A stretch of DNA of 64,000 nucleotides from a virus (Duplodnaviria; Caudoviricetes): IMG/VR virus record IMGVR_UViG_3300049988_000286, positions 128,001 to 192,000 of that record; one strand, given 5' to 3'. Shown piece by piece: positions 14,029 through 16,015 of the stretch (position 1 is the first letter of the stretch; each line of letters begins with the position of its first letter). The notes under the pieces were generated by a model. The model did not search any database. It saw only the letters and a list, made by a program, of their open reading frames with translations, and was not told where the DNA came from. The translations under genes and the position numbers were made by a program.

Positions 14029-14272
14029 TCCGATCCTCCATTCCGGGACCAAGCCTTACCGGCTGGTCCCGGAGAATGGGCTGGCATGATCCCGCCAACT
14101 GCTCATTGGCGGCGATCTCCACGATGAGCATCGAGATCGCACCGCCGATCGCCCACCGCTCCCGCAAGCGCCACCACGGAGTTTTGCGAAGGTGTGCCCT
14201 TAGGGCATCTCGCTCTCGGGTCTGACGGTCGATGACAAGCGAGATCGGGATTACGGGTTCGGCGCAGTTCAT
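13976..14272 (-). CDS. hypothetical protein
   Basis: ATG overlaps stop of 14269 ORF; 3' end overlaps AAA gene. Confidence 0.45.
   Translation of the reverse strand: MNCAEPVIPISLVIDRQTRERDALRAHLRKTPWWRLRERWAIGGAISMLIVEIAANEQLAGSCQPILRDQPVRLGPGMEDRIRNRYRGGNSASARTRP
14043..14072. terminator. strong hairpin just after the AAA gene, in the convergent region
   Basis: CCGGGACC-A-AGCC-ttacc-GGCT-GGTCCCGG. Confidence 0.45.
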
Positions 14273-14589
14273 GCGAACATCTCCGCCAAGGCAGCATCCC
14301 ACTGGCGCGGTGCGAAGCGACCTCTGGGATAATCGTGTAGTTCCGTGGTGCGGGCACGGAGATGGATGGTGGAGGCGGCGATATCGGCCAATGCCCCCAT
14401 CTCCTCCACGGTTGTCTTGGCCACGACGGTGAGGAATTTACGCCGCTGACCTCGCGGCGGGAGGCGGACTAGGCCGCTGTCGCTCGATAGAATCTTGACG
14501 CTGGTGCTCGACAGTTTCACGAGCAGGGCTTCGATGTCGCTCTTCGGCGTCATCATCGAGAAGAACATCTGATGTTCGAAGGTTGTCAT
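14269..14589 (-). CDS. hypothetical protein
   Basis: ORF track. Confidence 0.6.
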   Translation of the reverse strand: MTTFEHQMFFSMMTPKSDIEALLVKLSSTSVKILSSDSGLVRLPPRGQRRKFLTVVAKTTVEEMGALADIAASTIHLRARTTELHDYPRGRFAPRQWDAALAEMFA

Positions 14590-14630
14590 ACCGCCCCGAT
14601 AGCAGAACCAAGGCGGTATGACAATCCGAA

Positions 14631-14894
14631 CTAGGCGGGCTCGGCTTCGAGTTCGTTCTTATCCTCGATCTCATTGCCGTCGCGATCGTCGTCGCGATGA
14701 TCGCTTGCGTGGGAAACCCGCTTGTCTTCCGAAGACGCAGAGGCGTCCGAAGGACTACCCGTAGCGATAGGCCGATCCTCCGGAATGGAGTCGTAGGTCA
14801 TCTTTACCAACGCGGGAACATCCTCGGGAAGGATCGACCGATTGTTCACGAAATATGCTTCGAGGATTTGCACCGTCTGCTCGATTCTACTCAT
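14631..14894 (-). CDS. MucR/Ros N-terminal-domain-like protein with acidic tail, no zinc finger
   Basis: QTVQILEAYFVNNRSILPEDVPALVKMTYDSI resembles the MucR LTADIVSAYVSNN...ELPALI..VH.AL segment. Confidence 0.6.
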   Translation of the reverse strand: MSRIEQTVQILEAYFVNNRSILPEDVPALVKMTYDSIPEDRPIATGSPSDASASSEDKRVSHASDHRDDDRDGNEIEDKNELEAEPA

Positions 14895-15534
14895 TGCTGG
14901 GTTCCCTATGCTTGAGGATTGTAAGAATCTCACGGGCGATCTCGCCCATCTGTTTCGTCGCGTCAACGACAAAATAGGTATCGCCGTGATAGTGTGCCAT
15001 CACGGCCTCGGTCTGATTGTGGTAGCGAGATAGCCGCGCCCGAAGGGCATGGGGGTTGTCCTCCTCCCGGCGTTCCAACCCGGTTGAACAACGATCGCAT
15101 ACCATCTCGGTCAGGGGCGGCTTGAACACCACATGGTAACCGGTGCCGCAATGGGGGCAGACGAGCCGACCCGCAATGCGTTCGATGAGTAGTTGATCAG
15201 CGATTCGCAGTTCTACCACGTGGTCGATCGTCATCCCCATAGAGGCGAGTAGAGCATCGAAGACTCTGGCTTGCGCCACCGTGCGGGGGAAGCCATCGAA
15301 GACATAGTGGAGTGCTGGATCGAGGTTCGTGCGGATCAGCGCGATGGCGGTCTCGTCGGACACGAGGTGGCCCGCGTTCATATCAGCGGTGATGTTCTGC
15401 CCGAGTGGTGTCCCGGCCCTCATCTCGGCACGGAGCAACTCGCCAGTCGATAACGGCACGTAGCCGTGATCGACTAGGAGGTGGGCTTGTGTTCCTTTGC
15501 CCGAGCCGGGCGGACCAAATAGAATGATGCTCAC
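14887..15534 (-). CDS. adk: adenylate kinase
   Basis: GPPGSGKGTQA, STGELLR, FDGFPRT, LID CPHC..CDRC; GTG start chosen. Confidence 0.95.
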   Translation of the reverse strand: MSIILFGPPGSGKGTQAHLLVDHGYVPLSTGELLRAEMRAGTPLGQNITADMNAGHLVSDETAIALIRTNLDPALHYVFDGFPRTVAQARVFDALLASMGMTIDHVVELRIADQLLIERIAGRLVCPHCGTGYHVVFKPPLTEMVCDRCSTGLERREEDNPHALRARLSRYHNQTEAVMAHYHGDTYFVVDATKQMGEIAREILTILKHREPSNE

Positions 15535-15565
15535 CGCCCCCGTATGCGTAGGGGTGGGCGCGCCG

Positions 15566-16000
15566 TCAATGGGGGCGGGTAAACCCACGCAGCTTGATTG
15601 GCGGATTGGGATCGCGCTTCATCCGAAAGCCGTTTTTCGCATCGCCGAAACCGGTCACGAAACCGAAGCGCTGATACCACTCGACCAGTTTCTTGGTCGG
15701 AGTATCCGCGTACCCGTAAGCCAGCAGTGACAGGGGGACATTGAGTTCATCAGCGATCTCACATATCGCCTTGAGCGCCACGGTGCCGCTACCCTTGGTC
15801 AGCGAGTCCATGGAGTTGATGTGCACCTCCTGATTGCCCCGACTGGGCTGGCAGTGGACCGAACAGTCATGCACGATGAAGGCTTTGGGATCGAGGGGGT
15901 GATCGCGTGAAATAGCCTCAAGGCGCTTGAAGAAGTTTTCGACGGGTGATCCCTCAATTGGCACGCCGCTCAACTTGAGGATTGTCTCTAGCAAATCCAT
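15566..16000 (-). CDS. GNAT-fold protein, late
   Basis: KGSGTVALKAICEIAD...LVEWYQRFGF acetyl-CoA motif A/B pattern; TAAATA-ccac-ATG. Confidence 0.6.
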   Translation of the reverse strand: MDLLETILKLSGVPIEGSPVENFFKRLEAISRDHPLDPKAFIVHDCSVHCQPSRGNQEVHINSMDSLTKGSGTVALKAICEIADELNVPLSLLAYGYADTPTKKLVEWYQRFGFVTGFGDAKNGFRMKRDPNPPIKLRGFTRPH

Positions 16001-16015
16001 GTGGTATTTAGTGTT

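Follow-up and report, generated by a model that had tools for sequence, protein, structure and literature searches.

An 87-residue phage protein that joins a MucR-like N-terminal domain to an acidic tail: a possible H-NST-like partner of MucR-family silencers

In alphaproteobacteria, the H-NS-like silencer MucR controls genes of symbiosis, virulence and the cell cycle; its N-terminal domain makes dimers and rings, while its C-terminal part contacts DNA. The N-terminal domain carries a signature of Ile, Val or Leu at positions 20, 21, 25, 30, 35, 39, 42 and 46 together with Tyr or His at position 24, does not tolerate insertions or deletions within the 35-39-42-46 spacing, and self-associates in MucR1 as a minimal fragment spanning residues 17-47 (PMC9410896). 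Full-length MucR proteins are already known from phages (PMC7710501, PMC9410896). Truncated derivatives or phage inhibitors exist for the silencers H-NS, MvaT and Rok, and both were unknown for MucR according to a 2020 review, which gives unrelated partners of MucR as unknown too (PMC7710501); a 2025 paper likewise described the mechanisms of MucR anti-silencing as unknown before its own c-di-GMP result (PMC12560781). In the literature that we searched, including these two papers, no truncated MucR and no protein antagonist of MucR were found, in agreement with the first-pass annotation of the locus considered here, which knew of no described phage anti-MucR protein.

Three kinds of described systems bear on this locus. 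In pathogenic E. coli, the genomic islands serU and EARL encode H-NST, a truncated H-NS (Williamson and Free 2005; PMC7074111). H-NST assembles with H-NS into heteromers and lifts silencing, and its islands encode a full-length homologue of H-NS as well (PMC7074111); in the form of H-NST, truncated H-NS is a sound precedent for the anti-silencing role that the first-pass annotation had in mind. In S. fredii, the DNA-binding domain of MucR2 has been destroyed by a frameshift and the protein binds MucR1 through its N-terminal domain, yet its deletion has no phenotype and it is reported to be a promoter of MucR1 bridging, not a blocker (PMC9410896, PMC12560781). Finally, phages encode inhibitors of H-NS-type silencers, namely T7 gp5.5, which targets the oligomerization region, T4 Arn, an acidic DNA mimic, and LUZ24 Mip (PMC7710501). 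These are small silencer-neutralizing proteins, none of which is derived from a silencer and none of which acts on MucR.

The protein described here, P0001, is encoded by a phage represented by a 499,572-bp virus record from a leaf metagenome, of which a stretch of 64,000 nucleotides (the window; record bases 128001-192000) was analyzed. The features of its operon, in the order of transcription, are as follows.

16005-16010, minus strand: TAAATA, a late-type leaderless promoter motif that precedes the ATG of the first gene by 4 nt (genome-wide motif layout)
15566-16000, minus strand: 144-aa gene that opens the operon and belongs to no known family (ORF list; family searches)
14887-15588, minus strand: adenylate kinase gene (adk), whose TAG stop (14887-14889) falls within the first codons of the P0001 gene (Pfam ADK 1.7e-41, ADK_lid 3.3e-12)
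14631-14894, minus strand: P0001 gene, TAG stop included (ATG and 87 codons; best codon-usage frame of six; gapless cover by contigs from other studies)
14781-14885, minus strand: look-alike of the MucR-type N-terminal oligomerization domain, P0001 residues 4-38, with predicted helices at 3-17 and 25-35 (Pfam, hhalign, rank and shuffle tests, AF2, synonymous variants)
14634-14780, minus strand: acidic tail, P0001 residues 39-87, predicted disordered, net charge -10, no Cys (AF2, composition, no residual similarity to either the linker or the DNA-binding domain of MucR)
14583-14624, minus strand: hairpin of 18 bp located after the P0001 stop and containing the ATG of the following gene (folding, z -6.4)
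14269-14589, minus strand: downstream gene of 106 aa, possibly the last of the operon (best coding frame; six of six variants synonymous)

The first-pass annotation had reported an 87-aa ORF coupled to adk, and this description was borne out: the gene reads from 14894 to 14631 on the minus strand, it shares 8 nt, its ATG among them, with the final codons and TAG stop of adk, and an AGGGA lies 8 nt 5′ of its start. The annotated frame has the top codon-usage score among the six frames, which is true for both halves of the gene, and this score lies among those obtained for genuine coding chunks of the phage genome, with only 3.9% of false-frame chunks scoring higher. The protein as a whole has a pI of 4.3 and contains no Cys. 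TAG is the stop codon of both adk (14887-14889) and P0001 (14631-14633), as it is of 50 of the 309 long ORFs of the phage, and two tRNAs with a CUA anticodon (amber readers; genome 102238-102314 and 106351-106425) are found among the 41 phage tRNAs. Read-through of the P0001 TAG would extend the protein by 14 residues, ending at a TGA.

In the phage genome, the TAAATA layout precedes 102 ORFs of at least 50 aa, many of them with a capsid-tag N-terminus, and neither another TAAATA nor a sigma-70-like site was found on the minus strand between 16005-16010 and P0001. With a late-type motif as the sole promoter-like element of its operon, P0001 is probably expressed late, insofar as timing can be read from motifs. 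The 144-aa gene stands directly behind TAAATA-CCAC-ATG and begins with a sequence loosely like the phage capsid-tag peptides; no convincing family was found for it, its TrbA match (E 1e-3) being far under the cut-off. P0001 lacks a TAAATA of its own, unlike the capsid-tag proteins of the phage, and the idea that its N-terminus is a capsid-targeting tag (of the type Met-Arg-Asn-Trp-Ile-Asn-Leu-Val-Glu) was discarded, as there was no fit in register. Downstream of P0001, an 81-nt stretch that includes the hairpin folds at -41.3 kcal/mol (z -6.4); the hairpin is unique in the phage genome, is unchanged in a variant contig (X2, see below), lacks a U tract, and may act as a terminator or a translational block. 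The 106-aa gene that follows belongs to no family, and its population variants are synonymous at all six sites; the ACT-like fold suggested by a low-confidence Atlas model (TM 0.6-0.7) is only a lead.

Residues 4-38 of P0001 resemble the MucR/Ros N-terminal oligomerization domain beyond what chance would produce. In a search against all of Pfam, ROS_MUCR was the sole match of P0001 (E 0.04, 14.4 bits), and residues 4-42 aligned with positions 3-40 of the 123 positions of the profile, i.e. with the corresponding N-terminal end; the score is below the Pfam gathering cut-off for PF05443 (14.4 versus 25.4 bits). Alignment by hhalign to 47 MucR proteins gave a P value of 9.4e-4, with 34% identity over 35 columns. 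When an HMM of the N-terminal domain, built from 119 MucR proteins, was run on the 7379 six-frame, stop-to-stop ORFs of at least 40 aa of the phage, P0001 ranked second of 7379 and first of the 7378 non-MucR ORFs, the sole ORF above it being the full-length MucR of the phage. Not one of 5000 shuffles of residues 1-45 reached the real score (10.8 bits, versus a shuffle maximum of 7.4). The statement of the first-pass annotation that the first ~35 residues are MucR/Ros-like has therefore withstood the Pfam, hhalign, HMM rank and shuffle tests.

The likeness extends to the individual positions on which MucR self-association is known to depend. MAFFT placed P0001 in register with 29 MucR N-terminal domains, such that the counterparts of the signature positions are I10, L11, Y14, F15, I21, V26, V30, T33 and I37. 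Six of the eight hydrophobic positions match (I10, L11, I21, V26, V30 and I37), as does Y14, which corresponds to position 24; the two departures are Phe at position 25 and Thr at position 42, the latter being common to P0001 and the full-length MucRs of the phage clade. The 4-3-4 spacing of the last four signature positions is kept, one extra residue is accommodated between the helices in the spacer that was found to be tolerant (PMC9410896), and residues 8-38 span the counterpart of the MucR1 minimal fragment 17-47. Also retained are the family-specific Tyr24 and the turn motif Asp-Val-Pro-x-Leu-Val. We infer that the domain is probably homologous to that of MucR, as opposed to convergent with it.

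Predicted structures give a less uniform picture. AF2, run without an alignment, placed helices at residues 3-17 and 25-35 of P0001 with a pLDDT of about 80 and nothing regular beyond residue 40, so that in the two-helix test for MucR proteins P0001 shows the N-terminal domain and then a region without regular structure. A model of a host-type MucR (47 sequences) has helices at 5-26 and 31-49 followed by a low-confidence linker, and in the aligned register both P0001 helices lie inside the MucR helices, being shorter at their outer ends. The structural match to MucR anticipated by the first-pass annotation was found in one search and failed in another: an ESM Atlas search with residues 1-45 returned solely a PF05443 cluster (TM 0.75 by query), whereas a search of the Atlas with the AF2 model returned generic helical hairpins alone, with MucR absent. 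The structural evidence for a MucR fold is thus mixed, and the two-helix unit is too small to discriminate. In the PDB, the family is represented only by the Ros DNA-binding domain (2jsp), and a structure of the MucR N-terminal domain is absent. Complex prediction for P0001 residues 1-45 with the first 56 residues of a host-type MucR, run without controls, gave 0.30 relative to a mark of 0.32, a value that speaks neither for nor against contact.

The remainder of P0001 bears no detectable resemblance to MucR. Its 49-residue tail contains 16 Asp or Glu versus 6 Lys or Arg, and neither the first Cys ligand nor the DYPMVAP box nor the basic regions of a zinc-finger-type DNA-binding domain were found in P0001, confirming that the protein ends in an acidic tail free of a zinc finger, as had been reported. 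No remnant of the MucR C-terminal part was found in the other frames of the region. An ungapped BLAST had hinted that the tail might be a decayed MucR linker and zinc finger; this origin was rejected, as 2970 of 3000 shuffled tails scored at least as well as the real one against the full-length MucR HMM. Set against the folded carboxylate surface of proteins of the Arn/Ocr type, the tail is strongly acidic and without regular structure in the AF2 model (pLDDT 57-71). Whether by repulsion or by mimicry, an effect of the tail on DNA interactions would be pure conjecture.

Population variants indicate that P0001 is a real gene under purifying selection. The locus is present at about 97% identity in contigs from two other studies, one of which (X2, 553 nt) aligns gap-free to 14457-15009 and differs there at 14 positions, while another (X4) covers 14773-14923. 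Within residues 1-40, all six variant sites (22, 25, 26, 29, 30 and 36) are synonymous, an outcome that a neutral model restricted to transitions would produce with P of about 1e-3. The tail variants consist of the replacements D50E, D72G and K79E and one synonymous change; together the replacements shift the net charge from -10 to -11, such that the acidity is kept. The variant contigs have a low depth (2-5), and single differences may be errors, but errors would not favor synonymous sites. Selection is strongest on the MucR-like segment, and the sequence of the tail is less constrained.

P0001 is an orphan beyond these close variants. Among 5.8 billion proteins its only homologue was itself, and among 1.84 billion representative proteins the matches consisted of P0001 and two low-complexity matches in giant proteins. 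No match was found in a phage collection by DNA or by protein, no paralogue was found elsewhere in the phage genome, no relative of the adk beside P0001 was found in viral contigs, and none of the public runs of RNA type carried the locus. PHROGs and NCBIfam were uninformative, because neither recognizes even the full-length MucR of the phage. A profile search for stand-alone N-terminal domains among proteins of at most 81 aa gave 106 matches, nearly all of them singletons (clusters of 1-3); several of the short MucR matches are labelled partial, and of 12 that were inspected, most go out of frame after the domain and continue as unrelated sequence. Such out-of-frame entries (e.g. P0130, P0168 and P0181) may be assembly errors or pseudogenes, and could wrongly pass for stand-alone domains. 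Stand-alone MucR N-terminal-domain proteins thus form no conserved family. Five other large phages that carry MucR (168-517 kb) all lack a copy reduced to the N-terminal domain. Full-length MucR, by contrast, is common on phages, with 174 relatives in IMG/VR; an N-terminal-domain-only MucR on a phage is not common. A 516,805-bp IMG/VR phage with terminal repeats (L120, L124) has two full-length MucR paralogues 225 kb apart.

The phage that encodes P0001 possesses a full-length MucR as well. This protein of 188 aa (genome 299135-299701; L001:1465-2031) is encoded 107 kb past the end of the window and matches PF05443 at 2.2e-38. The first Cys is the sole zinc ligand that it retains (C..D..R..R); it has a long basic C-terminal extension and finds its nearest cellular relatives among the MucRs of Sphingomonadales. 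Its gene stands as its own unit, with TTGACA-N16-TATTTG upstream (a perfect -35) and a strong 15-bp terminator after it. A gene for an SMC/AAA-type ATPase lies upstream of the phage mucR, as it does in a 547-kb relative (L038). Among cellular genomes, MucR is present in 69 of 91 sampled alphaproteobacteria (a sample that includes one unpublished genome, G042).

We tentatively favor the view that P0001, which lacks a DNA-binding domain, would behave like H-NST and co-assemble as a subunit with MucR-family proteins, the host MucR being its main target. P0001 would join MucR-family oligomers, most likely those of the host MucR, through its N-terminal domain, and each subunit would contribute no DNA binding and a net charge of about -10. 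The smaller number of DNA-binding domains per particle would then weaken DNA-MucR-DNA bridging, as H-NST does with H-NS; both the contact with MucR and its consequence for silencing are what we infer. The structural features that define H-NST are present in P0001, i.e. the oligomerization domain is kept, the DNA-binding domain is absent, and the gene resides on a mobile element, here a 499,572-bp virus. The context also fits co-assembly: MucR was found in most of the sampled alphaproteobacterial genomes, the phage MucR is nearest to those of Sphingomonadales, the P0001 domain is closer to cellular MucRs than to the phage MucR, and the phage carries both forms. Against it, the absolute strength of the match is low (14.4 versus 25.4 bits; about 30% identity over 35 residues), P0001 has no homologue and hence no family that would reveal conservation beyond one phage species, the Atlas search with the AF2 model was devoid of MucR, and the stub is absent from the five other large MucR phages. 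Moreover, co-assembly need not antagonize MucR, because S. fredii MucR2, the only natural paralogue deficient in DNA binding to have been studied, promotes MucR1 bridging (PMC12560781). The first-pass annotation had suggested that silencing of phage promoters is relieved; relief early in infection fits poorly, because an anti-silencer would be expected early and the sole promoter-like site ahead of the operon belongs to the late class.

Comparison with the described systems defines how far each of them can serve as a guide. Like P0001, H-NST is a short protein of a mobile element that consists of only the oligomerization end of a silencer and is accompanied by a full-length homologue on the same element; unlike P0001, it resides on an island instead of a lytic-type phage and has no long acidic tail. 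The heteromers and anti-silencing activity of H-NST have been demonstrated, whereas those of P0001 are hypothetical, and since MucR and H-NS are unrelated in both sequence and fold, H-NST is an analogue only. With the N-terminal domain of S. fredii MucR1, P0001 shares the two predicted helices, the Ile/Val/Leu pattern, Tyr24 and the 35-39-42-46 spacing (PMC9410896); it differs from Ros/MucR proteins in having neither linker nor zinc-finger domain, in its sub-threshold score, in carrying Phe and Thr where two of the eight signature positions call for Ile, Val or Leu, and in its one extra residue. The full-length phage MucRs, to which P0001 bears a family likeness, likewise retain the DNA-binding domain that it lacks. 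MucR2 is chromosomal and of full-length origin, whereas the P0001 gene is phage-borne, compact and under selection, and its product ends in an acidic tail. Lastly, gp5.5, Arn and Mip are early proteins, whereas P0001 lies behind a late-type promoter.

Among the alternative explanations, the one that survives best concerns the identity of the partner. The phage MucR is an equally plausible partner of P0001, and P0001, made late, might switch off or remodel a silencer that the phage itself makes early, e.g. before late transcription or packaging, a proposal to which as a whole we assign a rather low probability. The self-contained phage mucR unit, with its upstream TTGACA-N16-TATTTG and 15-bp terminator, and the late-type promoter of the P0001 operon would be consistent with such a sequence of events, and the H-NST islands likewise hold a full-length homologue of their truncated protein (PMC7074111). 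In addition, Thr-Tyr at signature positions 42-43 occurs in both P0001 and the phage MucR and is absent from the cellular MucRs of the set. In opposition to this, the local alignment score of the P0001 domain is 31 against the phage MucR and 34-60 against cellular MucRs, and the timing of both genes is deduced solely from motifs.

It is improbable, in our estimation, that the helices serve merely as a self-association module with no specific link to MucR and that the tail is the active part, either as a multimeric DNA-mimic polyanion that titrates nucleoid proteins or restriction enzymes or as a late helper of assembly or packaging. The net charge of -10, the maintenance of acidity across variants and the late operon context would agree with a tail-centered role, and the acidic phage proteins T4 Arn and T7 Ocr do act on DNA-binding proteins (cited in PMC7710501). 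However, the tail is predicted to be disordered instead of forming a folded DNA mimic, and it is less constrained than the N-terminal part, the strongest selection being on the MucR-like segment. Similarly improbable is a chance or convergent likeness of two amphipathic helices in an unrelated small late protein, which would accord with the sub-threshold Pfam score, the orphan status, the many unrelated helical hairpins returned by the fold search with the AF2 model, and the absence of a BLASTP match between P0001 and the phage MucR, but is opposed by ROS_MUCR being the sole Pfam family and matching at the corresponding profile end, by the top rank among 7378 non-MucR ORFs and the failure of all 5000 shuffles to reach the score, by the retention of Tyr24 and the Asp-Val-Pro-x-Leu-Val turn motif, and by the Atlas search with residues 1-45, which gave MucR alone.

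Taken to its full extent, the co-assembly model would make P0001 the first natural protein antagonist of MucR, one that is itself derived from MucR and enters the MucR rings of the host, and perhaps those of the phage, with a polyanionic tail in place of the DNA-binding domain. Being made late, it might act ahead of late transcription and packaging, stripping the silencer from the 500-kb phage DNA or weakening its hold there. This complete scenario we consider doubtful. If it is true, an 87-aa antagonist would offer a genetic tool for turning MucR off without deletion as well as a probe of the assembly of MucR N-terminal rings, and P0001 would be the first indication that alphaproteobacterial phages counter or exploit the MucR silencer.
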